64,000 bases of DNA from an uncultured bacterium (GTDB lineage Bacteria; Omnitrophota; Omnitrophia; Omnitrophales; Aquincolibacteriaceae), in assembly GCA_964562525.1 (NCBI GenBank), contig CAZLTL010000007.1:32026-96025 (forward strand). The letters run 5' to 3'. The notes below the pieces were generated by a model. The model did no database searches, was not told the origin of the DNA, and was given only the letters and a program-made list of their open reading frames with translations. Positions within the stretch are counted from its first letter, which is position 1. Each line of letters starts with the position of its first letter. Position numbers and translations under genes: made by a program. Below are positions 471-55,775 of the stretch, piece by piece.

Positions 471-579
471 CCCAGCCCCCACCCCACCTTTGCCGAAGAA
501 GCTCAAAGAAGAAGTTTGCCGAGGGCGAGTTCCAAGCGAAGCATTGGCTGCTTGAGCCAGCGGCAAACTTCTTTTTGAG
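471..579 (+). repeat. Structured repeat element copy 0: cccagccccc head, perfect 13 bp stem aagaagtttgccg(509-521)/cggcaaacttctt(561-573) around a 39 nt core (gcgagttcc...cttgagccag), then T-run ctttttgag
   Basis: Aligned by eye with the copies at 3301-3422 and 55671-55775; the stems differ between loci but stay complementary. Confidence 0.5.
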
Positions 580-603
580 CTAAGCCACTTCATAAAAAAG
601 AAC

Positions 604-630
604 TAGATTCCCGCCTGCGCGAGAATGACA
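604..630. repeat. REP-like element tagattcccgcctgcgcgagaatgaca
   Basis: Member of the ctggattccc-loop-gggaatgaca family seen at four sites. Confidence 0.45.
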
Positions 631-678
631 AGTGGAATTGAAAGAATGGGCATGAACCAAGCCACAGCGATTGGAGAT

Positions 679-708
679 CTGGATTCCCGATCAAGTCGGG
701 AATGACAA
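679..708. repeat. REP-like hairpin ctggattcccga-tcaag-tcgggaatgacaa directly downstream of the DUF1653 gene; possible terminator
   Basis: Perfect 8 bp stem; same family as 604-630, 55799-55828 and 55948-55972. Confidence 0.5.
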
Positions 709-713
709 AAGAA

Positions 714-944
714 CTAACTTGAACGTAGAAATCTAAAACGCGGAATACTTTTACCGTCAATCAAGACAGTTTCTTGAAACATGGCAAGCGGACGCACCCA
801 AAGTTGACCTTCTTTAAAGTCACCTTTATATAAAGCTTTATAGATCACAACCGGCTCCCGCGCTTCGGTATGAATACCAGTATCGAGGACTTGATAAAGA
901 TTGCCTTTGTAATGCTCGTAAATCCCTTTTTTAATTTCTTCCAT
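714..944 (-). CDS. DUF1653 domain protein
   Basis: 76 aa; HYKGNLYQV...EPVVIYKALY...QLWVRPLAMF pattern typical of DUF1653. Confidence 0.65.
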   Translation of the reverse strand: MEEIKKGIYEHYKGNLYQVLDTGIHTEAREPVVIYKALYKGDFKEGQLWVRPLAMFQETVLIDGKSIPRFRFLRSS

Positions 945-947
945 AAA

Positions 948-1334
948 TTAATTTCTTTTGAATATTTTCAAAGCAATCCAAAATCCCGTTATGCCTAAAA
1001 CAGAAAATATCGCATCATAAACAACTGTCACCCAATCTCCGCTGCGGCCTGCAACAAATGTTTGATGCCACTCATCCGAACATGCAAAAAGAAAAGCAAT
1101 AATCATCGCTGTAATTGACACAAAAAACTTTTTATCAACACCAACCGAATGAGCAAAGCTGCGTGAAAGCAAAAATCCCAAAACGGCATACTCCACAAAA
1201 TGTGCGATCATGTGAATAAAAGGAAAATCAATATCCGGCAATTTATCCTTGGGAATGGATGATAAAAAGAATATCACCATCATCCATAAAACAGCCGGGA
1301 AACGGTAAATCCAAAAAGACTGCATTGTTACCAA
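948..1334 (-). CDS. VanZ-like family membrane protein
   Basis: 128 aa, 4 TM; [29 protein letters not shown] motif. Confidence 0.65.
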
Positions 1335-2959: not shown

Positions 2960-3231
2960 TCCCTTGAATTTTTTTAATCTCGTGAGTAAGTTTCTGTTTA
3001 AGCGTTAGCCGAGACAGACGATGCACCGAGGTGCGCAAATCGCGATATCGCCAGACGCTTAAAAAAATAACCGGACAACCCATCAGAAAGGAATGAAGGA
3101 CTGATTTTCCAATGAAGAAACACGGAGAATTTTATGTGTCTCATTTCAAAAAATCTAACGGTGTTGAAGGTCGTTGTAGAGCTTAATCGTGCCCGTCTCC
3201 CTCCGATTCGGGTATAAATAGGAATCATTTC

Positions 3232-3266
3232 GAGCCGGCTGCGGTAGCAGCCGGCTCTTTTTATTT
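3232..3266 (+). terminator. Rho-independent terminator-like hairpin gagccggctgc-ggta-gcagccggctc followed by ttttt, with no annotated + strand gene upstream
   Basis: Perfect 11 bp stem plus T-run; possible small ORF at 3112-3186 (24 aa) upstream. Confidence 0.45.
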
Positions 3267-3300
3267 ATCGACCGTGAAACGCGAATGCGTTTCTCTGCTT

Positions 3301-3422
3301 CCAGCCCCCCTCTCCAGCGCTAACTTCCCTTCTCAAGAAGACAGCCGCAAAGCTGCGAGTTCTGCGCCGTCTAGGACGCAGCTGTCTGAGCAGACTGCGG
3401 CGGGCTTTTGAGAAATTCATTC
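3301..3422 (+). repeat. Structured repeat element copy 1: ccagcccccc head, stem gccgca(3344-3349)/tgcggc(3406-3411) around the conserved core aagctgcgagttctgcgccgtctaggacgcagctgtctgagcagac, then gcttttgag
   Basis: The 45 nt core is nearly identical to 55718-55762. Confidence 0.55.
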
Positions 3423-3453
3423 TAATTTTTCGCACACACTCTATAATCACTTC

Positions 3454-3972
3454 ATGATTGAAAAATTTTCGTTCGAAGTTTGCGCCCCCAAAATTCCGCC
3501 GCAAACCAAACTTATTCTGGTCAAAGATGTTTGCGAGCACCGCGAACACATTGTGATGAAGCTACTTTCATATCTTTTGTTTTATACCCCTGAATTAAAA
3601 GTCGAAATCAGCGCGGACATGCACTATAAGCCCGACTTGATGATTCCAGGCGATCACGGCGTTCCCAAACTGTGGATTGACTGCGGGCAGGTGGCGATTA
3701 AGAAAATTGACGCCCTTGCCACTAAATTAAAAAATTCCCGAGTTATTTTTGTCAAAGAAGCTAAGCGCGAACTGGATGTTTTTAAGAAAATGGTGGAAAA
3801 GAAAATTGATAAATCGGAAAGACTTGAATATTTATCGTTTGATCCGGGCTTTGTTACTTCACTCGGTAATGCGCTGAAACGCACCAATCATATTACGCTG
3901 TATGAAGTGATGGAAAATGTGATTGGAGTCGCGCTGAACGACGAGATATTCGAAAGCACTCTGCACAGGTAA
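3454..3972 (+). CDS. yaeQ: YaeQ family protein
   Basis: 172 aa; KPDLMIPGDHGVPKLWIDCGQ...SRVIFV resembles the YaeQ signature. Confidence 0.5.
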   Translation: MIEKFSFEVCAPKIPPQTKLILVKDVCEHREHIVMKLLSYLLFYTPELKVEISADMHYKPDLMIPGDHGVPKLWIDCGQVAIKKIDALATKLKNSRVIFVKEAKRELDVFKKMVEKKIDKSERLEYLSFDPGFVTSLGNALKRTNHITLYEVMENVIGVALNDEIFESTLHR

Positions 3973-4077
3973 AATCGCTGAAAACGCTTCCCCTCGTGCG
4001 GCGTATTTTCACACATACGCCTCCTCGGGCACTCGTTCGCGCCTTGGATTGAAAACATTTTGATCGATTTTATTTAC

Positions 4078-4803
4078 TTAGGAACCGAGGTAGGCCTGCT
4101 TGATTTGGGGATTGGAGAGTAAATCTTTACCAATGCCCTCCATTTGAATTTGGCCTGATTCAATGACATACGCATAATCAGCAAGTTCCAAGGCCTTCCA
4201 CGCATTCTGTTCTACTAAAAGAATCGTCAGACCTTTTTCTTTGATTTTAACGATCAAATTAAAAATAATCTCGATCAGCTTCGGAGCCAATCCTAAGCTG
4301 GGCTCATCCAACAATAACAGTCTGGGCTTTGCCATCAAGGCGCGCGCCATAGCGAGCATTTGCTGTTCTCCGCCGCTTAAGTTGCCTGCCTGCCCTTTCA
4401 GTCTTTTTGCAAGAATGGGAAAAAGAGTAAGCATCTCTTCTTTGTCGTGTTTAACTTCACGGGCGCCGTCTTTGCGGGTATAAGCCCCCAAATCCAAATT
4501 TTCTTCCACGGTAAGATGCGGAAAAATACGGCGACCTTCGGGGACTTGTACCACGCCCTGCTTTACGACATCGCAAGGAGCCAGCTTAGAAATATCCGTG
4601 CCTTGAAAATGAATCGCTCCCTGATGCGCCCGCACTAAGCCTGAAAGCGTCATCAAAAAAGTAGTCTTCCCGGCGCCGTTGGAGCCGATCAAAGACACAA
4701 TCTTTCCTTCCGGAATTTTGACATTCACGCCCTTCAAAATCTCAATCGGACCATATCCCGCGTATAAATCTTGTGTCTCAAGCAAATAGGACATTTTACT
4801 CAC
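4078..4803 (-). CDS. livF: Branched-chain amino acid ABC transporter ATP-binding protein LivF
   Basis: Walker A GSNGAGKTT, LSGGEQQ signature; the C-terminal one of two adjacent ATP-binding genes. Confidence 0.85.
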   Translation of the reverse strand: MSKMSYLLETQDLYAGYGPIEILKGVNVKIPEGKIVSLIGSNGAGKTTFLMTLSGLVRAHQGAIHFQGTDISKLAPCDVVKQGVVQVPEGRRIFPHLTVEENLDLGAYTRKDGAREVKHDKEEMLTLFPILAKRLKGQAGNLSGGEQQMLAMARALMAKPRLLLLDEPSLGLAPKLIEIIFNLIVKIKEKGLTILLVEQNAWKALELADYAYVIESGQIQMEGIGKDLLSNPQIKQAYLGS

Positions 4804-5593
4804 AGGGCTTCCCTAAATAGGCCTCAATAACTGTTTTGTTACATTGAATTTCTTTGGGTTTGCCTTCCGCGATTTTTTTTCCGTAATCCAAAACGACAAT
4901 GTGATCGGAGATGGGCATCACGACTTTCATATCATGCTCAATCAAAACCAAAGTCACGCCGCGGTCGCGAATTGCAGTGAGATATCCCAGCAGCTCTTCT
5001 TTTTCTTTGGGATTCATGCCTGCGGCAGGCTCATCCAAAAGCAAAAGCTTAGGGTCGCTGGCTAACGCCCGAGCAATTTCAAGTTTGCGCTGATGCCCGT
5101 AAGCGAGATTACGCGCAAGCTCATTCGCCTTGCCGTCCAAGCAAAAAAAATCGAGCAAACGATGCGCGCGCTGCTCCATGCGCTTTTCTTCCACGCGCGT
5201 CCAGCGCGGCTGAATCAAACACCCAAACATACCGGATCGAAGCTTCGAATGCTCACCCACCATGACATTTTCAAGCGCGGTCATATTTTTAAACAAACGA
5301 ATGGTTTGGAAAGTGCGGGAAATATCGCAGGCGGCAATTTCATAAGGCTGCATGCGGTTTAAATTAATTTGCGAATCGCCGAAAAACATTGAACCTGAAT
5401 CAGGACGATAAAGCCCGGTGATGCAATTAAAAAGCGTCGTCTTGCCTGCACCATTCGGACCGATCACACTAACGATTTGTCCCTGCCGCACCGAAAAAGA
5501 AAGCTCATTCAGCGCGGTAACCCCGCCGAAGCGCTGCGTCACTTTTTCAATGTTCAAAATATTAAATTCAGACAGCGCCTGCGTGTTTTTCAT
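4796..5593 (-). CDS. livG: Branched-chain amino acid ABC transporter ATP-binding protein LivG
   Basis: GPNGAGKTT, LLLDEPAAG; LivG-type insertion. Confidence 0.85.
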   Translation of the reverse strand: MKNTQALSEFNILNIEKVTQRFGGVTALNELSFSVRQGQIVSVIGPNGAGKTTLFNCITGLYRPDSGSMFFGDSQINLNRMQPYEIAACDISRTFQTIRLFKNMTALENVMVGEHSKLRSGMFGCLIQPRWTRVEEKRMEQRAHRLLDFFCLDGKANELARNLAYGHQRKLEIARALASDPKLLLLDEPAAGMNPKEKEELLGYLTAIRDRGVTLVLIEHDMKVVMPISDHIVVLDYGKKIAEGKPKEIQCNKTVIEAYLGKPCE

Positions 5594-9717: not shown

Positions 9718-9723
9718 TTGCCA

Positions 9724-31511: not shown

Positions 31512-33407
31512 TCATTTTAACTCGCTTTGCAAAGCAGGAAGCTTTTCCAAGGCTTCACGAATGATCTTAGGCGTTAAAATCTCGGGCAAAATGACCGGCG
31601 GATCCCCTTGCCCCGGATAGAGCAGATAGAATGGAATACTGTTGCGCCCGTACGCCGCCAAAGCACGGGTAATCGTCTCATCCCGGCTGGTCCAATCGGC
31701 TTTCAAGGCCGTTACTTTTTTATCCTTAAATAAAGCGGCGGTTTCTTTGCGGTCGAGCGCTAAGCGTTCATTGACCTGACAAGTCAAACACCATGCTGCG
31801 GTAAAATCGACAAAGACTGGTTTTCCCTCCGCAAGTAAATCCGCCAAGCGCGTTTCGGAATAAGGCTCCCAATTCAACTGATGCGCCGAAGCGGGCTGCG
31901 TTTTTGATGCCCAATTTAAAATGCCCGTTTGCACCGCAAAAATCCAACCCAGCCATAAAGCAGTTAATAGCAAAAAAACACCCAGCGCTTTTTTGAGTGT
32001 CACCATCCACGGCCCGGGCTTGGGAATAAAACGCAGCCACGCGGGGTTCGCGCAAAGCAGCACATACGGAATAGCTAATCCTGCTCCCAACGCGGTAAAA
32101 ACAGCCCAGGCAACCCAAGCCGGCTGAGTCAGCGCATAACCCAAGGCTGTTCCCATAAACGGCGCCGTGCAAGGCGTTGCCACCACAACCGCTAAAATGC
32201 CGCTCGCAAAAGTTCCGGCCCAGCCTTTTTTTGCGCTTAAGTTTTGTCCCGCACCGGTCAGCGATAAACCGATTTCAAAAAATCCGAATAAATTAAAAGC
32301 CAAAATTAAAAAGACGACGGCTAAGCCCGCGACAAACCCAGGCGACTGCAACTGAAATCCCCAGCCAATTTGCTGTCCGCCGGATTTTAAAAGCATCAAA
32401 GCTCCGGCTAAAACCCAAAACGAAATTAACACCCCCGCGGTAAAAATTAGTCCCTGCTTTAAACCAGAGGCTCGGCTTTGCCGGGATTCATTCACGAAGC
32501 TTAAAACCTTAAGAGACAGCACCGGCAAAACGCAGGGCATCAAATTCAAAATCAATCCGCCCAAAAAAGCAAACAGCACCGCGCCCGAAAAACGAAGCGG
32601 AGTCTCGATGGGATCCGCGTTGGTTTCAAACGGAATATCGATTTCCCATGCTCTCTCTCCCGAAACCAAAACACCTCGGAGCCGCTCTAAAATTTTGGGC
32701 TGCGTGACCGCGAGAGGAATACTTAACTGATATCCCTGCGGCAAAACAGCAAGACTTTGCGTCTCCGCGTGCGCAACCAACTCTGCGTTTTCAGGGAAGA
32801 AATAAGCCCGTTCCAAATCAGGTCCGGTTTGCGAAAAAAAAGTCAGCTTGATTGATTTATCGAATCTTTCAGCATGAATTTCAAACGCGTTATCCTGAAG
32901 CGGATACCGGGCTTTTGTTTTTTCAAAAATATCTGCCCGCGCAGGAAAAGGCGCCGCAATTTCCAATTCAGCTTGTCCCGGAATACATTCCACCTTGCAA
33001 GCCAGCCATTCGACTTTCACTTTAAGACGGATGGGAGTATTCGGATTAAATTCAGGCGAAACTTGAAACGGTACTGCCAATAAAACTTCACCTTCATAGC
33101 CGTAACTAGAAAGCGGCGGTAAATCAATTTTCTTGGGAGTGGGCCATTGCACTTCCCCGGCGGAAATCCCCTCAGGTAATACCCATTTAAAAATCGGCGC
33201 CATGCCTGAGTCGCCTGGATTTTTCCAGTAAACATGCCAATCCGGGTCCATGCGAAAAAGAACACCCGCGTGAAACTCAGTGCGGGACTGAATCTGCTCC
33301 GTGTCGGCAATTAATTCAACCTGTGTATGCGCTTGATAAATCGGCTCCGCAAAAACAGGAACGGCTGCGCAAAACAAAAACAATAGAAGCAAATAAAGGC
33401 GGTTCAT
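31512..33407 (-). CDS. dsbD: Thiol:disulfide interchange protein DsbD
   Basis: Central CcdA-like TM domain (CVLPVLSLK), C-terminal thioredoxin WCLTC; start at MNRLYLL with RBS AAGGGG. Confidence 0.85.
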   Translation of the reverse strand: MNRLYLLLLFLFCAAVPVFAEPIYQAHTQVELIADTEQIQSRTEFHAGVLFRMDPDWHVYWKNPGDSGMAPIFKWVLPEGISAGEVQWPTPKKIDLPPLSSYGYEGEVLLAVPFQVSPEFNPNTPIRLKVKVEWLACKVECIPGQAELEIAAPFPARADIFEKTKARYPLQDNAFEIHAERFDKSIKLTFFSQTGPDLERAYFFPENAELVAHAETQSLAVLPQGYQLSIPLAVTQPKILERLRGVLVSGERAWEIDIPFETNADPIETPLRFSGAVLFAFLGGLILNLMPCVLPVLSLKVLSFVNESRQSRASGLKQGLIFTAGVLISFWVLAGALMLLKSGGQQIGWGFQLQSPGFVAGLAVVFLILAFNLFGFFEIGLSLTGAGQNLSAKKGWAGTFASGILAVVVATPCTAPFMGTALGYALTQPAWVAWAVFTALGAGLAIPYVLLCANPAWLRFIPKPGPWMVTLKKALGVFLLLTALWLGWIFAVQTGILNWASKTQPASAHQLNWEPYSETRLADLLAEGKPVFVDFTAAWCLTCQVNERLALDRKETAALFKDKKVTALKADWTSRDETITRALAAYGRNSIPFYLLYPGQGDPPVILPEILTPKIIREALEKLPALQSELK

Positions 33408-36916: not shown

Positions 36917-37393
36917 ATGACAAACATGCTGCCCCTAGGCATTCCAAAAGATTTCGTTGAAAAACAAACCGCCGTTATTCTTAATTCTTACCGGCACTGG
37001 ACAGGACGCGAGCTGCTCCCTTTATCTTCGGCTGAACCCGATTTAACGACAGCGCTTTTTTTTGCGCCGTTTGTCGTTGCCTCCTCAAACTCCGCGACGG
37101 ATCCTATTCTTAATTATGGTAATGCTCAGGCCTTAAAACTTTGGGAAATGCCCTGGAATCAGCTCACGCGAACACCCGGCCGCCACACCGCCGAACCCAT
37201 GCACCGCGATGAAAGGCAGAAGTTTTTGTATGCGGTTCAAAAAAATGGGTTTATTGAGAACTATTCGGGCATCCGTATTTCCAGCACAGGCCGGCGCTTC
37301 AAAATTGAAAAAGCCACGGTGTGGAACCTCGTCGATCAAGACGGCAAATTTTTAGGTCAAGCCGCTACATTCAAAGAGTGGTCTTATCTCTGA
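36917..37393 (+). CDS. MEKHLA domain protein
   Basis: LWEMPWNQLTRTPGRHTAEP...GFIENYSGIRISSTGRRFKIEKATVWNL resembles the bacterial MEKHLA/PAS-like family. Confidence 0.55.
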   Translation: MTNMLPLGIPKDFVEKQTAVILNSYRHWTGRELLPLSSAEPDLTTALFFAPFVVASSNSATDPILNYGNAQALKLWEMPWNQLTRTPGRHTAEPMHRDERQKFLYAVQKNGFIENYSGIRISSTGRRFKIEKATVWNLVDQDGKFLGQAATFKEWSYL

Positions 37394-37839
37394 GCTGTGT
37401 CCGGCTTGAAGGTTTTGCGGAAAAACTCACGGTTGGCGGGCATGTCTTCAGTGGACCAAATTTCACAACGCCAAATTCTTTTGATGGTCCCGCTATAAAC
37501 TTCAAAGGCTCCGCGGTCCTGCGCGTCAAAATACCCTTCGATCACTACATATTTCCCGGTAAGCTGTTCGCGCATGTTAAACATATCGTCCGTAATTTCT
37601 AAAGCGAGGCTGTTGCCAAAAACACCATGCTTAAAATCTGCCTCACTTAAATAAACAGCGTCGCCTTCGCGCTCTAAGTGAAGATAACCGATGACACGTA
37701 CGGTTTTACGATCATGCTCACGCGGGTTGGAAAGAATTTGAAGTAAAGTCGCATCTTGAGGATCAGCTGAGATACTGCCTCCGCAAGCTATGACCGCTCC
37801 TAAAAAAAGAATTCCAAGATAAAAATATCGCTTTAACAT
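37384..37839 (-). CDS. Hypothetical secreted protein
   Basis: Start at the internal MLKRYFYLGILFLGAVIACGG signal/lipobox; ORF-track start 38016 would overlap the desaturase. Confidence 0.45.
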   Translation of the reverse strand: MLKRYFYLGILFLGAVIACGGSISADPQDATLLQILSNPREHDRKTVRVIGYLHLEREGDAVYLSEADFKHGVFGNSLALEITDDMFNMREQLTGKYVVIEGYFDAQDRGAFEVYSGTIKRIWRCEIWSTEDMPANREFFRKTFKPDTAQR

Positions 37840-37918
37840 CAGGCTGATTCCATTCTGCTTAAATAGACCAGAGACATGATGCAGAAAAAAAACGAGACTG
37901 TCTAGGGCGTGTCCGTTT

Positions 37919-38782
37919 TTAGGCGGCGGGAGAACCAGAGAGTTTGGCGCGGGCAATACTTGCTTCGGGTACGCGCATGAGATCTCGCACCATCCCGATT
38001 TTCTCCATGAAGGCAATCATCCACTTGCTGGGATCCCAATGATACCAGCGCACGCCGTTACGATAATCACTCGGGAAACGGTGATGAAAATTATGATACC
38101 CTTCGCCGAAAGTCAAAATCGCCACAAGCCAATGATCACGCGCCGTAGCGTCCTTGTCATAAGTCCGGTTTCCGAAGGTATGGCACACCGAGTTAATGCA
38201 CCAGGTCGAGTGATAAACCAAAGTGACGCGGAAACAAACGCTGATGATAAATGCCGACAAAGCATGCCCAAAAAAACTGCCGATCACCACCGGTGTAATC
38301 ACGCCCGCCACAACCGCCCACGGAACATAATACTTAGCCTGATGCATGATTAAGCGACTACGCACCAAATCATCTACGTTCGTATAATGAAACTGGTATT
38401 TGCCGGCCACAAGCCAGCCCATATGCGCCCAGAAAAATCCTTTTTTAATACTGTAAGGATCATTGTCGGTATCCACAAAGCGGTGATGATCGCGATGCTG
38501 CGAAGACCAAGCCAAAGCGGATTGTTCAAACGCGGCGGAACCAAAAAAAATCAAAAGAAAACGCACCAGCTGATTCGCTTTATACGTCACATGCGCGAAA
38601 AGACGATGATACCCCACCGTAATCGCCATGCCGGTGGCAATGCAGAAAAAAACAAACAGCGCGATTTCATCCCAAGCCAAACCGTTGTAGGCGATATAAA
38701 TCGGTGCCCCGATTAGTCCAACAACCGTATTAAACGAAATAAACGTGATATTAAACCAATTGAATTTACCCAGCTTTGACAT
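37919..38782 (-). CDS. Membrane fatty acid (acyl-CoA/acyl-lipid) delta-9-type desaturase
   Basis: Three His boxes HRLFAH, HRDHHRF, HNFHHRFP. Confidence 0.8.
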   Translation of the reverse strand: MSKLGKFNWFNITFISFNTVVGLIGAPIYIAYNGLAWDEIALFVFFCIATGMAITVGYHRLFAHVTYKANQLVRFLLIFFGSAAFEQSALAWSSQHRDHHRFVDTDNDPYSIKKGFFWAHMGWLVAGKYQFHYTNVDDLVRSRLIMHQAKYYVPWAVVAGVITPVVIGSFFGHALSAFIISVCFRVTLVYHSTWCINSVCHTFGNRTYDKDATARDHWLVAILTFGEGYHNFHHRFPSDYRNGVRWYHWDPSKWMIAFMEKIGMVRDLMRVPEASIARAKLSGSPAA

Positions 38783-41659: not shown

Positions 41660-41968
41660 TTAAAGCTGAACTCCGCCGTCCGGAAGAGTCATTTCGGCAG
41701 GAATCGGGAAAGTAAGAAGGTTAAAGGCACCTGCAACCGTGCTGTGGATAGCGTCAACAACGCCCTTACCTGCACCGGCCCAAGGATTCTTCTTCTCTTG
41801 CTGATAAGCATGAGGAACTGAGAATACTTTGGTCCAACCCAAAAGAGTATTCGACAATCCACTCTGCAACTTAGCGCCAACTGCATCGGAATAGGAATCA
41901 GCAGCAAACGAAGATGCCGGAGTTAACATGACTGCAGCCATGAGAATTAAACCTAAGATTTTTTTCAT
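41660..41968 (-). CDS. Small secreted protein, paralog A; resembles the exosortase-system-associated TIGR04073 family (uncertain)
   Basis: Signal peptide; KLQSGLSNTLLGWTKV...NPWAGAGKGVVDAIHSTVAGAFNLLTFPIP. Confidence 0.45.
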   Translation of the reverse strand: MKKILGLILMAAVMLTPASSFAADSYSDAVGAKLQSGLSNTLLGWTKVFSVPHAYQQEKKNPWAGAGKGVVDAIHSTVAGAFNLLTFPIPAEMTLPDGGVQL

Positions 41969-42259: not shown

Positions 42260-42634
42260 TTATTTTACGGCTGCGGCTTCCGCGGCTTTAACAGTTGAAC
42301 CTTCCCAATCTTCCGACTTAGGCGCTGAACCTAAATCCACACACTGATCATTGCTCATTTCAGCGGCAATGGGAAAAGTCAGCAAATTAAAAGCTCCGGC
42401 AACCGTGCAGTGAATCGCGTCCACAACGCCTTTGCCCGCGCCCGCCCAAGGATTTTTATTTTCCTGTTTATACTCATGCGGAACCGAGAAAGCTTTTGTC
42501 CAACCGAAAAGCGTGTTGGTCAAGCCGCTCTCAAGACGCTCGCCCACCGCATCGGAATAGGAGTCTTCCGCATAAACATTCAGCGAAATCAAAGAAACAA
42601 CCAAAATTAAAATAAGCCCCAAAAACTTCTTCAT
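42260..42634 (-). CDS. Small secreted protein, paralog B of 41660-41968 (TIGR04073-like), with an extra C-terminal tail
   Basis: ~70% identical core to paralog A. Confidence 0.45.
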   Translation of the reverse strand: MKKFLGLILILVVSLISLNVYAEDSYSDAVGERLESGLTNTLFGWTKAFSVPHEYKQENKNPWAGAGKGVVDAIHCTVAGAFNLLTFPIAAEMSNDQCVDLGSAPKSEDWEGSTVKAAEAAAVK

Positions 42635-45436: not shown

Positions 45437-45955
45437 ATGAGTTTCTTGCCCAAGCTAAAAAAATTGGGTTTTTATTTAACCGCATTTCTTCCGTTTTTTT
45501 CAGCCGCGGCCTTGGCTGCTGACTGTTATAGTGACTGTATGCGCGGTTCCGGGTGCTGGGATTCCCGCTCGGACGAAAATGTCAGTTATTGCAGCGGCAT
45601 TCAGGCGCGTTGTTCAACCGAGTGCCGGAGTTCCGCCAACAGCGCCAATAGCAGCTATAAATCTTACGGCGCCATCGCTTACAGCCGTAAAGACCAAAGC
45701 TACGGCTACTCCAACGGCAAAAAAACACGTAACCAAGCTGAAAAAACAGCCTTACAATACTGTCAAGAATACGGTAAAAAATGCAAAGCCGCGGTTTGGT
45801 TTTATAATCAATGCGGAGCCGTCGCCGCAGACGAAGAAAAAGTCGGAATCGGTCTCGGCACCAACACCGGCGACGCAAGTCAAGCCGCTCTGAAGGAATG
45901 TAAGAAAAGCGGCAAAAACAATTGCAAAGTTAAAATAGCGCATTGCTCGTTTTAA
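45437..45955 (+). CDS. Secreted DUF4189-like Cys-rich protein
   Basis: Signal peptide; duplicated GA(I/V)A...C..YG..C half-domains. Confidence 0.5.
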   Translation: MSFLPKLKKLGFYLTAFLPFFSAAALAADCYSDCMRGSGCWDSRSDENVSYCSGIQARCSTECRSSANSANSSYKSYGAIAYSRKDQSYGYSNGKKTRNQAEKTALQYCQEYGKKCKAAVWFYNQCGAVAADEEKVGIGLGTNTGDASQAALKECKKSGKNNCKVKIAHCSF

Positions 45956-49327: not shown

Positions 49328-49359
49328 TTTACATCCTTTTCGCCGGAAGCGACTTTTCG

Positions 49360-50007: not shown

Positions 50008-50019
50008 AAATCATTCCTT

Positions 50020-50065
50020 TTAACAGACTAAAAACCAACGACTGAAGACCGAAGACTAATGTCTT
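50020..50065. repeat. Repeat family A (cagactaMagaccaacgacYgaagactaaYgac; iterated NAAGAC/NAACGAC units) immediately upstream of the TPMT start
   Basis: Also at 51885-51930, 52322-52355 and 54526-54563. Confidence 0.55.
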
Positions 50066-50302
50066 CCCGCGGACGGCGTCCCGTTTTCACGGCGGAGTTT
50101 ATCGTCGCCTCTTTTGAATCAAAATCGTTATTCCGAAAGCAAGCGCAAGAGAAACCACAAAAACAACTGCTGCAATGCCAAAAAACTTTTGAATTTGCGG
50201 TTGCCGCGTCAAAGTTCCAACACTATAGCCCAAAGGCAACAACACAAAACCCCAGACTAACCACTCAATCCTTGGTTGAAACTTCATTTGCGTAATCCTC
50301 AA

Positions 50303-50461
50303 TCAGCTCAACAACAACTTAGGATTATGACAATGATATTGCCCAGTACCATTCGCCCAATTGTGGTGACAGCCTTGCGAATCCGTGCCCCCGCTGTGCG
50401 CAAAAGCAGAACCCGAAACTAGCATAACTAAAACAACAACCAATCCAAAAACTTTTTTCAT
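50303..50461 (-). CDS. YHYH-motif secreted protein
   Basis: AHSGGTDSQGCHHNWANGTGQYHCH; start at MKKVFGL with RBS GGGAGGG. Confidence 0.55.
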   Translation of the reverse strand: MKKVFGLVVVLVMLVSGSAFAHSGGTDSQGCHHNWANGTGQYHCHNPKLLLS

Positions 50462-50569
50462 TAATCTAAGCCCTCCCCGCCGCTTGTCCCGAGCAAAGCC
50501 GAGGGAGACGGCGTCCCGTTTTCCGTTTTCTTGCTTGGGCTCTGCGTCTAAGAGGTCTATAATCATTTC

Positions 50570-51079
50570 ATGAATTATACTTCATCAGAAATTCTAAACC
50601 CGAAAAAAGCTTCCGAGTCGCGCGTCGAGACAACTTATTTGATGATGCCCCATCACGCGAACCCCGCCGGCAATATTTACGGCGGATCCATTCTTTCGAT
50701 GGCAGATGCGGTCGCTTACATGTGCGCCGCGCGCCACAGCGGACCCGGGTGTGTCACGGTTTCTGTCGATCAGGTTGACTTTCGCAAACCTATTCTCATC
50801 GGTGAAGTGCTCACTTTCAAAGCTTCGATTAATTATGTCGGACGAACCTCGATGGAAGTCGGCATCCGCATTGAATCTGAGAATCTCAAGACAGGGAAAA
50901 AACAGCACACCAATTCTTGCTATTTCACGATGGTCTGCCTTGATGAAAACTACCAGCCAACTCCCGTCCCACCGCTTTTATGCGAAACCAAAGAAGAAAA
51001 ACGACGGTTTGCCGAAGGCCGCATCCGCCGCGAGCACGCTAAAGAACTTTCAGAGAAAAGAAAAAAACTCGAAATATAA
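50570..51079 (+). CDS. Acyl-CoA thioesterase (hotdog fold, YciA-like)
   Basis: MMPHHANPAGNIYGGSILSMAD. Confidence 0.75.
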   Translation: MNYTSSEILNPKKASESRVETTYLMMPHHANPAGNIYGGSILSMADAVAYMCAARHSGPGCVTVSVDQVDFRKPILIGEVLTFKASINYVGRTSMEVGIRIESENLKTGKKQHTNSCYFTMVCLDENYQPTPVPPLLCETKEEKRRFAEGRIRREHAKELSEKRKKLEI

Positions 51080-51130
51080 AATTAGTTCAAAACTCAGAGA
51101 TCAGAAATCAGAACCATAGCTCAAAACCTA

Positions 51131-51802
51131 TCAGCTAATCATCAAACTCTGAACTCTGATTTTTGAATTCTGAACTTTTCCTGCCTGTCCCCGCGGTACT
51201 CGGTACCTTTTTCTGGAAATGTTCCGATCTCTGTTTTGGAAACGCAAAAAAAGCATGCTGACAAAAACCATCAAAAGAAATAATCCAAGCCCCGACAACA
51301 AGAGAACATCTTTCAACTCCAAAATCTTAGCGCTGTTTAAATAAAATGCCGCTGCTAAAAATACTACCCCCGTAATAATCCCGCCAACAGGTACAATTAA
51401 AGCATAGGACTTAGAAACATCTATGGCTGACTGCAGTCGCCCTCTCTGTCCCTTTGAGCGCAAAATCGCATGGGGGTCGCGCAGAGGATGGAATGCATGA
51501 TATCGATAGAGACACAGAAAGAAAATAATTACTCCACTTCCAATAAAAAAAGGCAGTTTTTCAAAAAAACTCATCTTGTCTTCAACTGAAAACTTAATGG
51601 CTGGCATCTTGTTGTCGGAATCTTCCAAGCAAATAGATCTTAATTCTTCATACGCCTTTGAATTCAAGCTCTGATGAGGAACATCAAATTTTTTCCCATT
51701 TTCACACTCAACCACAAATTTTTTTTCATTGGTCATTAGTGTGCCAAATACCAAGCCAAACACTACGCCAAAAATAGTAGCCCACCACAAAGAAAAACTC
51801 AC
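51131..51802 (-). CDS. Hypothetical membrane protein
   Basis: 4 TM; 223 aa. Confidence 0.45.
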   Translation of the reverse strand: MSFSLWWATIFGVVFGLVFGTLMTNEKKFVVECENGKKFDVPHQSLNSKAYEELRSICLEDSDNKMPAIKFSVEDKMSFFEKLPFFIGSGVIIFFLCLYRYHAFHPLRDPHAILRSKGQRGRLQSAIDVSKSYALIVPVGGIITGVVFLAAAFYLNSAKILELKDVLLLSGLGLFLLMVFVSMLFLRFQNRDRNISRKRYRVPRGQAGKVQNSKIRVQSLMIS

Positions 51803-51911
51803 AAATCACTACCTCCATCAGAAAAAACTAAGCTGTCACTCTCTTGCTGAGCCAACCAGCTGCTTTTAAAAATGTTCTGAACAAAACAGACTACAGACCG
51901 ACGACTGAAGA

Positions 51912-52232
51912 TTACCGACTAACGCTTCTGCTCGCCAAGTAATCACGCAGCTTTTTTTCATCCCCTACAAATCTTATATTGTCCCGTGAGATCCAACTAC
52001 CAACGGTAACACCAACAGTCTCACCTTTGATCAGATTTCCTGTTTGCACTACGGTTCCCTTTTTAATAATGCCAAACATGGGCTGATTATTTATTTTTCC
52101 GAATAGTTCCAAATTAATATCTTCAAGAAGAACGCCATAAAAAGGAGAAGGACGAGGCTTCATCACGGCAGTCATAAAACCTGAGACATACACACAAAGC
52201 AGAACAATCACAGTCACAATTTTTCTTTTCAT
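51912..52232 (-). CDS. Hypothetical small secreted protein; C-terminal codons are supplied by repeat family A
   Basis: N-terminal signal/TM. Confidence 0.4.
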   Translation of the reverse strand: MKRKIVTVIVLLCVYVSGFMTAVMKPRPSPFYGVLLEDINLELFGKINNQPMFGIIKKGTVVQTGNLIKGETVGVTVGSWISRDNIRFVGDEKKLRDYLASRSVSR

Positions 52233-52565
52233 AGGTTTACCTTTTTAACCCGGCACTTTTACAAGCCGAAGCATCGCTTCGAACCAGTGGTCGCATGACC
52301 AGAAATGTTCCGATCGAAATCAGACTAAAGACCAACGACTGAAGACTAACGACTACTTTGAACCCGGTAAGCCTCGACATCAGTCGAGAACCAATGGTCG
52401 CATGACCACACTTTTAGAAATGTTCCGATCTCTGAGCAGACCCAAACATTTTTTCATTTATTTAACCCGGCACTTCCGGTACCGGTACCTTTTCTATTCA
52501 AATGACTAAAGACTACCCCTTCGACTTCGCTCAGGGCAAGCGACTACTTTGAAGCCTACACTTAT
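52233..52565. repeat. 333 bp intergenic mosaic of repeats: tandem units cgaaccagtggtcgcatgacc-agaaatgttccgatc, family A, family B (acccggcacttccggtaccggtacctttt), and a 62 bp duplicate (52438-52499) of the bla start region
   Basis: Each segment has one or more copies elsewhere in 50-55 kb; the reverse complement reads ATGAAAAAATGTTTGGGTCTGCTC, matching the first 8 codons of bla. Confidence 0.7.
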
Positions 52566-52928
52566 TTATACAGCTTCCAAAATCTCGCTGACTTTTTTCC
52601 GGAAATCCTCGATAGAAAAAGGTTTGGGCAAAAAACAAACCATATCTCCATCGGCAAAAATACTTTTCACGCTTTCGCGACTCGACATCACAAGCACAGG
52701 AATATTTCGGTAAGGCGAATCCGGACGCTTGAGGTTAACAAGCAACTCATATCCCGTCATTTCAGGCATCAACACATCGGTAGCGATCAAGTCAGGCTGA
52801 ATACGGCCCACACCATCTAACGCCGCCGCGCCATTGGAAAAAATGGTAACCTCATAATCCGCTCTCAGCATCGCCTTTAAAAGCGCCGCAAGGCTAGGAT
52901 CGTCGTCCACGATCATTATTTTTTTCAT
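52566..52928 (-). CDS. Single-domain CheY-like response regulator (orphan receiver)
   Basis: MKKIMIVDDD, phospho-acceptor D in LIATDVLMP, conserved K in FLPKP. Confidence 0.8.
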   Translation of the reverse strand: MKKIMIVDDDPSLAALLKAMLRADYEVTIFSNGAAALDGVGRIQPDLIATDVLMPEMTGYELLVNLKRPDSPYRNIPVLVMSSRESVKSIFADGDMVCFLPKPFSIEDFRKKVSEILEAV

Positions 52929-53020
52929 CTTACCTGTCCCTTTGGTAAACGGTACCTTTTTTACTCGCCTGTCCCCGCGATTCCCGGTACCTTTTTTTGG
53001 GCGACTAACGTCTTTTTTAG
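52929..53020. repeat. Two family-B-like units (cctgtccc-tttggtaaacggtacctttttt; cctgtccccgcgattcccggtaccttttttt) between bla and the receiver gene
   Basis: Shared ggtacc-Tn ends with the other B copies. Confidence 0.5.
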
Positions 53021-53818
53021 TTATTCAAATAAAGACTCAACAAGAACGCGAACATCTTTTCCCGTCGCGCCGTCACCTTTTACCACGGCTGCAAAAGCAT
53101 AATTTTCATTATGAGACTCAACATATCCGACAAACCAGCCATAGTTCGACTGCGGTGCGTTGTTCATGGCACTGCCCGTTTTTCCATAAAGCACGCTCTG
53201 CGAAACTTCCTTCACACGCATGATTTCTTTTAACCCTGCTCGCGTTTTTTCCGAAAAAGGCAATTGTCCTGAAACCAACCGGCACAAAAGCTGCGCTTGC
53301 TCAAACGGTGAAATCAAAATTGTTTGGCGGTTTTCAGCGGGGAGCCAAAAAACATCAAGCCCTGCACTGATATCCTCATTACCGTACCCGATGCGGTTCA
53401 GCCAATTTTGCATAGCCTCGGCTCCGATTGAGCGCGCCAAAGCTTGATACGCGGGCACGGAAGAAACACGGAATGCCTCTTTTAAATTCAAATTCTGATT
53501 CCAATCCGGAATCGCACGCGTCACACCGTCCCACTCGTAAAACGATTGCTCGGGAGAGGTCAGCACCCCCTCCTCAAATCCAATCAATGTATTCCAGATT
53601 TTAAAAGTGGAACACGGTGCCAGTTTTTTCGAAACCCCCTCGGGATTGAATTGCAAAGCTTGCTCCGACCCGCAATCCAGCATCACAAACGCACCGTCAC
53701 GCCCCTCAAAAATAGATTGAACCCTCGCCTCAGAAACCGGTAAAACACTCTCATTCGCCGCAACCGATAAGGCAGCATTGAAACAGAAACAAATGAGCAG
53801 ACCCAAACATTTTTTCAT
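53021..53818 (-). CDS. Class D (OXA-type) serine beta-lactamase
   Basis: Signal peptide; STFK (PCSTFKIW), SVP-type motif, YGN, KTG, and W..G (GWFVGYVE). Confidence 0.85.
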   Translation of the reverse strand: MKKCLGLLICFCFNAALSVAANESVLPVSEARVQSIFEGRDGAFVMLDCGSEQALQFNPEGVSKKLAPCSTFKIWNTLIGFEEGVLTSPEQSFYEWDGVTRAIPDWNQNLNLKEAFRVSSVPAYQALARSIGAEAMQNWLNRIGYGNEDISAGLDVFWLPAENRQTILISPFEQAQLLCRLVSGQLPFSEKTRAGLKEIMRVKEVSQSVLYGKTGSAMNNAPQSNYGWFVGYVESHNENYAFAAVVKGDGATGKDVRVLVESLFE

Positions 53819-53857
53819 TTATTTAACCCGGCACTTCCGGTACCGGTACCTTTTTCT
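53795..53857. repeat. 62 bp repeat (copy 2) spanning the bla start codon and the 3' end of the upstream gene; identical to 52438-52499 except one T
   Basis: Direct alignment gagcagacccaaacattttttcatttatttaacccggcacttccggtaccggtacc. Confidence 0.75.
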
Positions 53858-54396
53858 GTTTTCTGTAATTCAGAGCCCATGTTAATTAAGTCAGTTAAAT
53901 TTGCTCCGGCTGCATAGCTAATCATAAATTTTCCGTGCTGAAGCTCTTCGATTAATTTTTTCAATCGATGAACTTTTATCCCAGCTTGTTCAATCAGTCT
54001 GACTTCATCTTCAGACTTCACATTGTGAATGACGAGCTCACTAGACCACGGTTTGTTGAAAAGAGCTTGCATCAACTTTCTCTTTTTAGGTTCATTAAAT
54101 TTTATTTCAACCCATTCCTTGACACCTTGCTCCAGATCCCCAGGCTCTCGCTTAGCGCTAGTTGCACCGCGCCCTTTAGCCCGCTGAACTTCTTTTGGAA
54201 CCCTAGATATATAGCTGACAGGACGCATAGAAGCTTGCACTTCGATATGCCGACATTCTTCAACCTCCGCACCTTTAATCTTAATTGCCAAAAGATCCAT
54301 TTCATGAACACCGAGCTTGATACCACGAATGGTAAAATAACCCTGCCGATTTAACCATTCCTCCACAATTTCTTCTGCCAACAATGCCATAGACAA
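53815..54396 (-). CDS. YraN/UPF0102-like PD-(D/E)xK-fold protein with the Lys position occupied by Gln (EVQ), plus a ~110 aa C-terminal extension; stop overlaps the bla start (ATGA)
   Basis: EEWLNRQGYFTIRGIKLGVHEMDLLAIK...IEVQAS parallels the YraN GEIDLIA...VEVK pattern; the C-terminal GTGTGSAGLNK is encoded by repeat family B. Confidence 0.45.
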   Translation of the reverse strand: MSMALLAEEIVEEWLNRQGYFTIRGIKLGVHEMDLLAIKIKGAEVEECRHIEVQASMRPVSYISRVPKEVQRAKGRGATSAKREPGDLEQGVKEWVEIKFNEPKKRKLMQALFNKPWSSELVIHNVKSEDEVRLIEQAGIKVHRLKKLIEELQHGKFMISYAAGANLTDLINMGSELQKTEKGTGTGSAGLNK

Positions 54397-54429
54397 CCTC
54401 TAGCTAACTTTTACCTTTTATACTTAACC

Positions 54430-54595
54430 TTTAACCTGCACTCTTACCTGTCCCCGCGGTACCCGGTACCTTTTTTTTCCAACCTGGCACTTCCGGTACC
54501 GGTATCTTTTTCTTAATCAAATCAGACTACAGACCAACGACCGAAGACTAACGACTTTTCGAACCCGGCACTTCCGGTACCGGTACCTTTTTAGA
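54430..54595. repeat. Cluster of family B repeats (three copies) and family A (54526-54563) between the DUF4062-like gene and the nuclease-like gene
   Basis: cctgtccccgcggtacccggtaccttttt; aacctggcacttccggtaccggtatcttttt; aacccggcacttccggtaccggtaccttttt. Confidence 0.65.
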
Positions 54596-55553
54596 AAGGA
54601 ACATTCTCATCCGGGGCATCGAGCACATCCAACTTCAGATCCGCTTCTTTCCATTCTTCAGGCGTAAAAATCTTTAAACGCCCTTCAGCATCAAATATAC
54701 TTTTATTGAACTTCAATAGATGTATTTTCTTGCCTCGGGTCTCCGTCCATTCAATAAAATTGGGACTATCCCAAAGCTCTTCCACCATCATGGAAAAACC
54801 ACGTGCTCTTAGCCAAGCCTCAAACTCTGATTTATTAGTAAAATAAATTCGATAGGGAATTTTCAACATTTTCTTAAGTTGATTAAAAATTGGATGGCTA
54901 CCCAACAATATTTCTCGAATAGCAGCGTCTCCTCTTTCTTTTGCGCTGGTTAAAAAAGAAACCAACTGTTTTAGAGTTGCGATCATTTCTTTCATATCAG
55001 CCAGATCTAATAATTCTTTCTGCCGTGCATTCTCCTGAAGTAACCGCTGAAAAAGACCCGCCCATTGCTCCTGAAGATAGCCTGTAATATCTGCCGTAAT
55101 TTCAAATCCAGCCACTTGATTATTAAATGGTAAAGCAAAAACTTCGTCCAAAAATTTATAGATTTTGAGATCATCAACAGCGGCCGGCTTAAACTGCGCG
55201 TTGTCTCGATTTTTTTCATATGTTTTGTGTTCCGCAAGAACATTTTTTTCAACAAAAACATATATTTGTTTGTTTAATTCAATAGCTGTTTTCAACTCTT
55301 GCTGTGAAATTGAATAATCTTTCTCTTTTGACGGGCTACCATAACGACCTCCCACAATTGAAATAATAATGTCACAATGCTCTATTTCCTTATAACAGTA
55401 CTCTTCTAATTTTTTTTCTGCGCCATAAGCAACTGCACCACGCTCATGGAGAACAGGCTCAAAGCCTCTTTCCTTAATAAATCTTTCTAAATCAGCCCGA
55501 ACTACTTTTAAATCGTAATAAGTTGAACTCACAAAAACCCTAGGTCTTGCCAT
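54591..55553 (-). CDS. DUF4062-like N-terminal domain protein with an uncharacterised C-terminal region
   Basis: RVFVSSTYYDLKVVRADLERFIKERGFEPVLHE...CDIIISIVGGRYGS fits the DUF4062 start (VF[IV]SST..DL...R). Confidence 0.45.
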   Translation of the reverse strand: MARPRVFVSSTYYDLKVVRADLERFIKERGFEPVLHERGAVAYGAEKKLEEYCYKEIEHCDIIISIVGGRYGSPSKEKDYSISQQELKTAIELNKQIYVFVEKNVLAEHKTYEKNRDNAQFKPAAVDDLKIYKFLDEVFALPFNNQVAGFEITADITGYLQEQWAGLFQRLLQENARQKELLDLADMKEMIATLKQLVSFLTSAKERGDAAIREILLGSHPIFNQLKKMLKIPYRIYFTNKSEFEAWLRARGFSMMVEELWDSPNFIEWTETRGKKIHLLKFNKSIFDAEGRLKIFTPEEWKEADLKLDVLDAPDENVPF

Positions 55554-55670
55554 TTATAAACTCCTAAATTTAACTCGATACAAAAACCCAACTCTTTCGA
55601 TATTGCTTAGCTAGATCGAAAGAGTTATCAAAACAGGAAACCTTTTTGAGAGAAAAGTTTCTCCATTTCA

Positions 55671-55775
55671 CAGCCCCCCACCCCTCTTTGAACGAGGGGT
55701 TCAAGTCCGTTCTTTCGAAGCTGCGAGTTCTGCGCCGTCAGGACGCAGTTGTCTGAGCAGACCGAAAGAACGGAT
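55671..55775 (+). repeat. Structured repeat element copy 2: cagcccccca head, hairpin cccctc-tttgaac-gagggg, 12 bp stem tccgttctttcg(55706-55717)/cgaaagaacgga(55763-55774) around the conserved 45 nt core
   Basis: Core aagctgcgagttctgcgccgtcaggacgcagttgtctgagcagac differs from copy 1 at two positions. Confidence 0.55.

Follow-up and report, generated by a model that had tools for sequence, protein, structure and literature searches.

In enterobacteria and pseudomonads, the REP/BIME sequences (repetitive extragenic palindromes and bacterial interspersed mosaic elements) can affect termination and the 3' ends of mRNAs, and the ERIC/IRU, Neisseria Correia and Bacillus cereus bcr1 elements can carry terminator or promoter activity. 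Hairpins that work as single-stranded DNA (ssDNA) are known from REP/RAYT systems, from IS200/IS605-derived elements and from attC-like sites, and the small RNA (sRNA) families cuckoo/ar14 of the Rhizobiales, LhrC and RsaE run to 2-10 copies, each with a promoter and a terminator of its own. Here we describe a repeat that touches on all of these in a 64-kb stretch of DNA (hereafter the window; positions 32,026 to 96,025 of contig CAZLTL010000007.1, assembly GCA_964562525.1) from an uncultured bacterium of the phylum Omnitrophota. An earlier inspection of the letters alone, the sequence-only reading, had pointed to three loci in which a conserved core is bracketed by stems that differ from locus to locus. 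Our analysis showed that these loci are copies of a dispersed structured element of ~150-330 nt that is specific to one Omnitrophota lineage. In our view it is an undescribed family whose kind is the dispersed structured repeat, and it is distinguished by an invariant apical domain on a stem of free sequence (P1), a C-rich strand upstream, and a strict placement in which P1 abuts a convergent gene's stop codon.

All three loci were confirmed at the coordinates first given and on the + strand. A covariance model made from outside copies (the core plus 24 nt on each side) found them at 501-581, 3331-3414 and 55698-55782 (copies 0, 1 and 2), with 62-81 bits and E-values of 2e-15 to 6e-21. With filters off, this model found no fourth copy in the window, where the next-best match, at 17.5 bits, is an ordinary terminator hairpin. 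Exact matches to the 20-nt core GCTGCGAGTTCTGCGCCGTC number two in the window, while none is expected from shuffles. Core-pattern scans of genome and metagenome collections returned 7 and 20 loci, and every named one belongs to a Candidatus Omnitrophota/Omnitrophica metagenome-assembled genome. Within the loci that were fetched, cited below by their L numbers, the covariance model identified 33 clean copies, and further ones lie in the yaeQ loci of related genomes, giving ~40 additional copies overall in Omnitrophota genomes and metagenomes; the search among relatives that had been suggested with the sequence-only reading thus found many. The yaeQ locus of the window was itself recovered in three independent Logan assemblies, and the architecture is shared across independent assemblies from NCBI, ENA, JGI and Logan. 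No copy was present in ~58 kb of sequence from genomes with a YaeQ of only 68% identity, and viral and plasmid collections gave no match to the element. The density is 3 per 64 kb in the window and 7 per 38.5 kb in L031 and L033 together, which are unbiased in this respect as they were fetched solely for encoding YaeQ; extrapolated, these densities would correspond to tens to hundreds of copies per genome. No annotated RNA family had come to mind at first sight, and indeed Rfam 15 gave 0 matches in the window at the gathering threshold, while scans of two loci at an E-value threshold returned chance matches only, outside the core. The window has no tRNA or tmRNA gene, and our literature searches found nothing on Omnitrophota repeats or non-coding RNAs.

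Read 5' to 3' on the + strand, the element consists of a hairpin P-1, a linker, a hairpin P0, a pyrimidine-rich strand, the P1 5' arm, the core, the P1 3' arm and a tail. P-1 is optional, G+C-rich and variable, and the linker that joins it to P0 is A/U-rich (for example CATATAAC or GATATAGC). P0 takes the form GAAAnGC-loop-GCnUUUC, expanded to ~90 nt in some copies, and is followed by a pyrimidine-rich strand of 25-30 nt (UCUCCGYUU..AGCC(Y)CCACCCC, then ..UUUGCGCGA); both are present 5' of P1 in most copies. The C-rich head with which each window locus had been said to begin is real and conserved (consensus ..TTTCTCCGYTT..AGCCCCCACCCC), its AGCC(Y)CCACCCC being kept in ~28 of 36 copies and left unpaired between two hairpins in predicted folds. 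P1 comprises 17-28 bp, free in sequence but paired, and in ~10 of 30 copies it has a single bulged G in its 5' arm, 7-8 nt from the base of the stem. The conserved apical domain that caps it (40-46 nt) is made up of a 3-bp helix (N-G-C / G-C-N'), an asymmetric purine-rich internal loop with the invariant strands 5'-GAGUU and 5'-YUGYYUGA, and a helix P2. Several versions of P2 occur (CUGCG/CGCAG, CCGCG/CGCGG, CCAA/UUGG, CUGUG/CACAG and CCGA/UCGG), always with a bulged A on the 3' strand and with a GNNA or GNA loop. The tail, also optional, reads GAACCACUU..GAACU and includes a REP-like hairpin, GGAUUCCCG..CGGGAAUGACA. There are in addition "solo" P1-core hairpins that have neither P0 nor head (L004, L007, L017:3501 and L027:3119).

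The observation that first drew attention to the element, stems that change yet stay complementary around a conserved loop, was confirmed as covariation around the apical domain, with both controls (shuffled partners and slid partners) in support of the structure. Pairs were counted on a model-fitted alignment of 31 distinct copies, which is biased towards the model. Standard pairs fill 88.2% of cells, compared with 62.2 +/- 1.2% when partners are shuffled (0 of 500 shuffles reached the observed value) and 32-44% when partners are slid by 1-3 columns. Changes on both sides were seen in 20 of 24 pairs and in 206 cells, where 66 were expected. A structure-blind MAFFT alignment examined with RNAalifold likewise gave compensatory changes in 12 of 14 pairs. 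The closing pair can be G-C, A-U, C-G, U-A or G.U, and double changes can be followed stepwise within one P1 type, from UCCGUUC/GAACGGA through UCCAUUC/GAAUGGA to UCAAUUC/GAAUUGA (window copy 2, L015 and L018). Median pairwise identity is 0.32 for the P1 arms and 0.85 for the core. The window and L039 have orthologous copies ahead of yaeQ; their upstream flanks are ~90% identical, while about half of the positions in their P1 arms differ with pairing kept. The core stays identical even between genomes that are saturated at neutral sites. It follows that the core is under purifying selection and that P1 needs only to pair. Folding z-scores on the + strand are -4.0 for copy 0, -5.2 for copy 2 and 0.02 for the region of copy 1.

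Placement, too, follows a rule. All copies are intergenic. Among 30 independent copies, 23 have a convergent gene next to them on the P1 side (p = 0.005), a count that rises to 25 after two corrections: one drew on L023, the orthologue of a truncated locus, and the other took in a tRNA-Met gene whose end lies 5 nt from P1 in L027. The end of the hit lies 1-13 nt from the convergent stop codon in 10 copies and at most 45 nt from it in 18. On the P0 side the preference is weaker, with 19 neighbours divergent and 11 in the same direction. Convergent intergenic regions hold copies in 5'-to-5' pairs, each P1 against one of the two stop codons (L031 10555 and ~10960; L033 10554 and 10965). Complete sense-oriented copies number three (window copy 1, L019/L026 and L031:6654), and all of them lie just upstream of a promoter or gene start, as would be expected if the + orientation were polar.

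The strand on which the element acts can be approached through its wobble pairs. Across 30 non-redundant P1 stems, symmetric scoring on the + strand gave 605 Watson-Crick, 23 G.U and 10 A.C pairs (p = 0.035). The + strand of the window is C-rich (GC skew -0.03 to -0.2), with 60 of 73 open reading frames (ORFs) on the - strand. If this skew is mutational, it predicts more A.C than G.U on the + strand, so the excess of G.U points to folding of the + strand. As the template of both leading-strand synthesis and transcription, this strand would also be the one least exposed as ssDNA, which would favour RNA over ssDNA. Furthermore, the conserved unpaired bases (GA..GA, the bulged A and the bulged G) are purine-rich solely when the + strand is read. 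From these signs we infer that the element acts at the level of RNA and from the + strand.

Our preferred reading, to which we lean only tentatively, takes the element for a strand-specific RNA module that lies antisense to the genes beside it, binds a conserved factor and brings transcription to an end, or insulates it, where genes finish. Such an RNA would come from the strand that the sequence-only reading had used. Transcription running backward from the promoter region of the next gene would cross P0 and the C-rich stretch and would be halted at P1, back-to-back with the stop codon of the convergent gene, so that P1 would probably be a 3'-end or terminator hairpin shared by both directions. 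The invariant internal loop would be the docking site of the conserved factor, and the C-rich strand might be a loading or pairing site of a Rho-like, S1-like or anti-Shine-Dalgarno-like kind. As a matter of conjecture only, + strand transcription may arise by divergent firing from the promoter of the next gene. An antisense module of this sort would account for the orientation rule, the 5'-to-5' pairs, the wobble asymmetry and the tolerance of antisense copies inside operons, and, if the + orientation is polar, also for why sense copies are confined to transcription-unit ends. The role in termination or insulation and the binding factor itself are both putative. A bolder version seems improbable to us: a genome-wide RNA device, in tens to hundreds of copies per genome, in which a C-rich loading strand and an invariant-tip hairpin that recruits a specific factor form an evolved, modular insulator, set antisense at the ends of genes so as to stop transcription that runs backward or converges, or else a mobile hairpin element that is recognised through its apical domain rather than its ends. 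If true, it would be an antisense-transcription insulator with no described counterpart, and a mobile hairpin recognised in that way would be equally undescribed.

Several observations weigh against an antisense RNA. The G.U excess is modest and is gone in the model-fitted alignment (25:25), although this count is uninformative because bulges shift the outer stem positions out of register, which is why symmetric arm-to-arm alignments were used instead. The accessory hairpins reverse the wobble bias (3:6). Overall, the stems are almost wholly Watson-Crick, with G.U making up less than 4% of pairs, which is unusual for RNA families, and Watson-Crick stems with GNA or GNNA loops suit DNA hairpins too. 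The antisense model does not explain where + strand transcription begins: no sigma-70-like promoter and no conserved motif was found upstream of the copies on the + strand, and the 5'-to-5' pairs leave ~5 nt between their P-1 hairpins, with no space for a promoter. P1 was not called by our terminator scan and the U-tracts after it are inconsistent between copies; where an intrinsic terminator has a G+C-rich stem of 5-14 bp and a loop of 3-8 nt before its U-tract, the "loop" here is a structured domain of 40-46 nt, and the U-runs are variable and lie partly within the stem. In L033, L014, L016 and L022 the gene-sense strand must be transcribed through the element. Finally, replication template switching can create long inverted repeats and hold them perfectly paired without pair-by-pair selection on RNA (PMC8794818), and it could maintain the P1 stems in this way. 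The selected RNA structure of the sequence-only reading therefore stands as a selected structure, while the stems' near-pure Watson-Crick make-up, the modest G.U excess and template switching leave its RNA level as something that we infer. The element may also serve as a warning case, in that DNA-level processes can keep long covarying stems and covariation alone is no proof of RNA function.

The strongest rival places the function on the gene-sense strand, where the element would be a REP/BIME-like cis-acting hairpin in mRNA 3' untranslated regions and intercistronic spacers. There it would block exonucleases, terminate or attenuate transcription, or mark a site of processing, and a protein would bind the mRNA at the apical domain. 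We consider this unlikely, if still to be taken seriously. In its favour, P1 starts 1-13 nt past the upstream gene's stop codon, where no other terminator is present, and read-through is needed at the sites just mentioned: the L033 copy splits livG-like and livF-like genes that overlap in the window (89 nt separate them in L031), and in L014, L016 and L022 the next ATG, with its Shine-Dalgarno (SD) sequence, lies 13-29 nt past P0. The - strand also gives a U-rich linker after P0 in about half of the copies, and there is a promoter-like - strand site upstream of copy 2. However, the wobble pairs (23:10) favour the opposite strand, and on the gene-sense strand the conserved loops turn into pyrimidine mismatches (AACUC / UCARRCAR) with a bulged U and C. 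The near-constant position of the P0-head module, on the side of P1 away from the stop codon, is left unexplained, and copy 2, L009, L012 and L024 lie past a canonical terminator that the upstream gene already has.

A second rival, raised as an alternative in the sequence-only reading, concerns mobility, and here the evidence comes from the gain and loss of copies. The window and L039/L040 (YaeQ 84% identical) have a copy upstream of yaeQ that is absent from L031 and L033 (YaeQ 81% and 80%), where copies lie downstream of the gene instead. Such presence and absence at orthologous sites, together with that of the liv operon copy of L033, means that copies are gained and lost. Modules also reassort: among L009, L015, L018, L019, L026, L031 and the window, P0-head segments that are 80-85% identical occur with unrelated P1 stems, and one P1 type is combined with four different P0 hairpins, which suggests segmental exchange between copies. 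It is thus conceivable, though in our judgement improbable, that the element is or was a mobile DNA element whose hairpins are recognised as ssDNA by a transposase or recombinase and whose structure is kept for mobilisation. Its high density, its mixed modules, the mini-hairpins inserted in the L006 and L039 copies, the near-perfect Watson-Crick stems, and the GNA/GNNA loops and stem bulged G that are typical of ssDNA recognition sites would all fit. The gain and loss of copies, however, speak for mobility only indirectly. No terminal inverted repeat is conserved between copies, the only long inverted repeat being the locus-specific P1, and comparing the filled site in L033 (15595-15819) with the empty ones in the window (4796-4803) and L031 (11792-11881) gave no clear target duplication, at sites too diverged to set boundaries. 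No P1 is shared between non-orthologous copies, apart from one tandem pair, and no recently made copy was seen. Neither the window nor the gene calls of the fetched loci contain a transposase, an integrase, a reverse transcriptase or a Cas gene. The G.T-tolerant strand is the one least exposed as ssDNA, and a core that is invariant across deeply diverged copies argues for selection at each copy.

As a third rival, each copy might be an independent trans-acting sRNA gene whose C-rich stretch (..CCUCCAC.. / CCCCCACCCC) pairs with G-rich, SD-like sequences of target mRNAs. Multi-copy sRNA families that carry anti-SD motifs have been described (PMC4615179). The conserved C-rich segment is predicted to be unpaired between two hairpins, some heads contain CCUCC, the element ends in a 3' hairpin, and the wobble pairs favour the + strand. 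We regard this reading as very doubtful, as no promoter was found and adjacent copies leave no space for one, the extrapolated copy number far exceeds that of any known trans-sRNA family, strict placement at stop codons is unexpected for free-standing sRNA genes, and solo hairpins without the C-rich head exist. That the stems are chance palindromes, low complexity or an assembly artefact has practically nothing in its favour beyond the region of copy 1, which alone folds no better than shuffled sequence, and it was refuted by the core shuffles, both covariation controls, model E-values of 1e-15 to 1e-21 and the recurrence of the same architecture in NCBI, ENA, JGI and Logan assemblies.

Within the window, the stems first quoted for the three copies (13, 6 and 12 bp) are correctly paired but are merely the inner portions of longer ones, each with one bulged G in the 5' arm, and the "cttttgag" T-runs that had been taken as copy ends are 3' stem halves that pair with upstream ctcaaag / ctcaag and leave no free tails. 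The element also extends beyond the first description, with P0 at all three loci and with P-1 and a 3' tail in copies 0 and 2. All parts of the copies given below are on the + strand. Copy 0 is flanked by an HTH_3 gene and a DUF1653 gene, the latter also adjacent to a copy in L031. It opens with P-1 at 385-421 (GGTCTTTTCACGATTC gcgtg GAATCGAGGAAAGACC), and a CGATTCGCGTGGAATCG hairpin also precedes copies L010 and L030. P0 at 429-466 (GGGAAGCC..GGCTTCTCC) encloses an inner hairpin, and a pyrimidine-rich single-stranded head with linker follows at 467-500 (TTTTCCCAGCCCCCACCCCACCTTTGCCGAAGAA). The P1 5' arm at 501-521 (GCTCAAAGAAGAAGTTTGCCG, with bulged G508) pairs over 20 bp with the 3' arm at 561-580 (CGGCAAACTTCTTTTTGAGC). 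The core between them (522-560) was described from the start as more diverged, and it keeps the same architecture and GCGAGTTC..TGCTTGAGC with P2 swapped: a 3-bp helix GGC/GCC and an internal loop GAGUU / CUGCUUGA lead to CCAAGC-GAA-GCAUUGG in place of CUGCGCC-GUCA-GGACGCAG, the bulged A being retained. The tail at 581-632 (AGCCACTT..GAACTA) contains the REP-like hairpin GATTCCCGCCTGCGCGAGAATGACA (606-632), and a second tail-type hairpin, GATTCCCGATCAAGTCGGGAATGACA, is an optional module at 682-708.

Copy 1, upstream of yaeQ, has a strong + strand terminator hairpin before it (3232-3257), then P0 at 3276-3293 (GAAACGC gaat GCGTTTC) and the pyrimidine-rich head and linker at 3294-3329 (TCTGCTTCCAGCCCCCCTCTCC..). 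Its P1 (5' arm 3330-3349, TTCTCAAGAAGACAGCCGCA, with a bulged G; 3' arm 3396-3414, TGCGGCGGGCTTTTGAGAA) has 17 bp and 2 mismatches, and the apical core at 3350-3395 reads AAGCT GCGAGTTC CTGCGCC-GTCTA-GGACGCAG CTGTCTGAGC AGAC. On the + strand of this copy a G+C-rich inner stem is followed by CUUUUGAG, and past P1 stand a promoter-like TATAAT (3439-3444) and the ATG of yaeQ (3454). Copy 2, between nrdB and a DUF4062 gene, includes P-1 at 55590-55626 (AACTCTTTCGAT..ATCGAAAGAGTT), P0 at 55636-55664 (GGAAACCTTTT..AAAAGTTTCTCC) and the pyrimidine-rich head and linker at 55665-55697 (ATTTCACAGCCCCCCACCCCTCTTTGAACGAGG). The P1 arms of 55698-55717 (GGTTCAAGTCCGTTCTTTCG, bulged G55705) and 55763-55781 (CGAAAGAACGGATTGAACC) form 19 bp around the apical core at 55718-55762 (AAGCT GCGAGTTC CTGCGCC-GTCA-GGACGCAG TTGTCTGAGC AGAC), and the tail at 55782-55827 (GAGCCACTT..GAACT) ends in the hairpin GGATTCCCGCCTTCGCAGGAATGACAG (55801-55827). 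Outside the repeat, a canonical nrdB terminator lies on the - strand at 55894-55923, between copy 2 and nrdB (55983-57044, - strand).

The tail hairpins of copies 0 and 2 share the form GGATTCCCG-loop-CGGGAATGACA, which is a separate REP-like module that follows only some copies, sometimes in tandem; a weaker instance lies at 45560, and in L033 the module stands upstream of P0 instead. Mini-hairpins form another group. Those inserted in the L006 and L039 copies resemble the products of template-switch-like processes, and one of them, TGGTC-GNA-GACCA, recurs in the window (~52288 and 52385), in L006 (4790-4805) and in L031 (10885-10900). In the window and L031 it stands immediately before a P0 3' arm (GTTTCTCC). 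The insertion in the L006 copy interrupts the conserved 3' loop strand of its core, and L039 has another hairpin, of 19 nt, inserted in P2. The solo P1-core hairpin of L027 (3042-3199) is convergent to the tRNA-Met gene, 5 nt beyond its 3' end, and in place of the C-run head of other copies it has a flanking G-run, GCAGGGGGGCC.

Other short repeats accompany the element. The stretch from 50024 to 54591 is dense in intergenic units, with CAGACTAAAGACCAACGACTGAAGACTAACGACT-like ones starting at 50024, 51887, 52321 and 54523 and several CCCGGCACTTCCGGTACCGGTACCTTTT and CCTGTCCCCGCGGTACCCGGTACCTTTTT units, and similar low-complexity fillers (ttaccttttacctttaac) lie between the liv genes in L031. 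An exact duplicate of 61 nt (52433-52493 and 53794-53854) includes the start of a - strand gene with a transpeptidase domain (ATGAAAAAATGTTTGGGTCTGCTCA, 53021-53818), while its other copy heads only a short ORF. A direct repeat of 177 nt, 77% identical, occurs at 41689-41865 and 42355-42531, 666 nt apart. Stretches without an ORF of at least 75 aa are unusually long at 32172-33017, 37393-37919 and 60836-61330. A promoter-like TCTATAATCAnTTC stands directly before the ATG of yaeQ (3437-3456) and that of a 4HBT thioesterase gene (50555-50572), and at the L019/L026 locus L019 has TTATAAT 13 nt before an ATG; such boxes abutting start codons suggest that mRNAs of this lineage may be leaderless or have very short leaders. 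Finally, three genomes have a unit adjacent to yaeQ (window 3113-3257, L039 963-1110, L043 3456-3600), in which an ORF of 15-24 aa (M(K)(K/Q)HG..YVS(H/Y).KKS) with an SD sequence is followed by ..CTCCCTCC.. and a strong + strand terminator. The unit precedes yaeQ in the window and L039 and follows it in L043, and it may represent a small protein or an sRNA.

A number of known identities were tried and set aside. For a kink-turn, GA/GA beside a GC/GC helix fits in sequence, but the three positions by the would-be bulge are G/G, U/U and U/Y, which are not Watson-Crick; a sarcin-ricin loop shares the tandem GA and the remainder is unfit by the same kind of check. An IS200/IS605- or IscB/TnpB-associated RNA was rejected, there being no tnpA, tnpB or iscB among the scanned ORFs of at least ~75 aa (Pfam) or in the gene calls of the loci. 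Coding was rejected too, in that opposite-strand ORFs span all three loci with unrelated products. In a hammerhead-like sequence of copy 2 (CUGAGCAGA..CGAAAG) the GAAA falls within the variable stem, and none of the ribozyme families gave a match. Group II intron domain V, retron RNA, Y RNA and 6S RNA were each considered, with neither a match nor an associated gene. We also considered that the core had been inserted into the loop of a pre-existing terminator, but the head and P0 lie outside P1, and P1 exceeds the genome's canonical terminators in both length and A+T content; since the L033 copy sits where liv genes overlap elsewhere, P1 must have arrived with the element. A promoter in the linker before P0 (-10-like CATATAAC, GGATAAT) is too near P0, comes after the variable P-1 and has no -35 box. 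Pseudoknots between head ACAGC and core GCUGU, or between core AGUUC and tail GAACU, show no covariation, and the tail is optional.

Omnitrophota are uncultured, and the element is among the best-supported structured non-coding families that can be obtained from sequence alone, with dozens of independent copies, an asymmetric internal loop that does not vary, and stems whose changes are saturated yet compensated. We know of no work on how transcription units are organised in this phylum. The placement rule makes it possible to test how compact genomes with nearly all genes on a single strand deal with transcript ends and antisense transcription, and which protein might read the invariant loop.

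Among known systems, REP/BIME sequences share with the element an extragenic location, many copies, hairpins that directly follow stop codons or separate the genes of an operon, a mosaic arrangement with further short modules, and tandem or inverted pairs. The same placement was found here, with 23-25 of 30 copies at gene 3' ends and one between liv ABC transporter genes. In contrast, REP stems are conserved in sequence and have a GTAG head, whereas here the stems are locus-specific around a conserved loop domain and the unit is 4-8 times longer. The REP-type GTAG tetranucleotide is absent from the element, whose conserved flank is the ..TTTCTCCGYTT..AGCCCCCACCCC consensus ~20-30 nt upstream of P1, and a RAYT (Y1 transposase) gene was seen neither in the window nor among the genes called in the fetched loci. 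The ERIC/IRU, Correia and bcr1 elements, which resemble miniature inverted-repeat transposable elements, are likewise 100-300 nt long and intergenic, with a long hairpin and a presence that varies between relatives, but they have conserved terminal inverted repeats, target duplications and near-identical copies, while here there are no such terminal repeats or near-identical copies, no clear target duplication was seen, and the stem is unique to each copy.

Integron attC sites are similar in keeping structure over a variable stem, in having extrahelical stem bases (here the single bulged G, in all three window copies and ~10 of 30 overall) and in lying just after the preceding stop codon, and the base of the stem resembles xTTRRRY / RYYYAAx. 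The apical part, however, is the most conserved here and the most variable in attC. An attC identity was rejected: the stem bases (such as GCTCAAA/TTTGAGC and GTTCAAG/ATTGAAC) match the R''/R' boxes RYYYAAC / GTTRRRY at 6 of 7 positions, with the G of the invariant GTT/AAC triplet absent, there is no cassette array or intI, and the window copies lie scattered among housekeeping genes across 55 kb. Protein-binding regulon hairpins such as the iron-responsive element (IRE) also present a conserved loop and bulge on a stem that need only pair, beside many unrelated genes, although IREs are eukaryotic, ~30 nt long and of fixed orientation in mRNAs, and the present element is mostly antisense and has extra modules. 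With cuckoo/ar14, LhrC and RsaE it has in common a paralogous family per genome, an exposed, conserved C-rich motif between hairpins and structure kept while sequence diverges (PMC4615179); it differs in its much higher density, its strict placement at gene ends and its copies, for which no promoter of their own was detected. P1 is also directly downstream of a stop codon, as an intrinsic terminator would be. The element thus resembles REP/BIME and ERIC/Correia in where it lies and attC and the IRE in preserving shape over sequence, and it departs from each of them in the very features by which they are defined.

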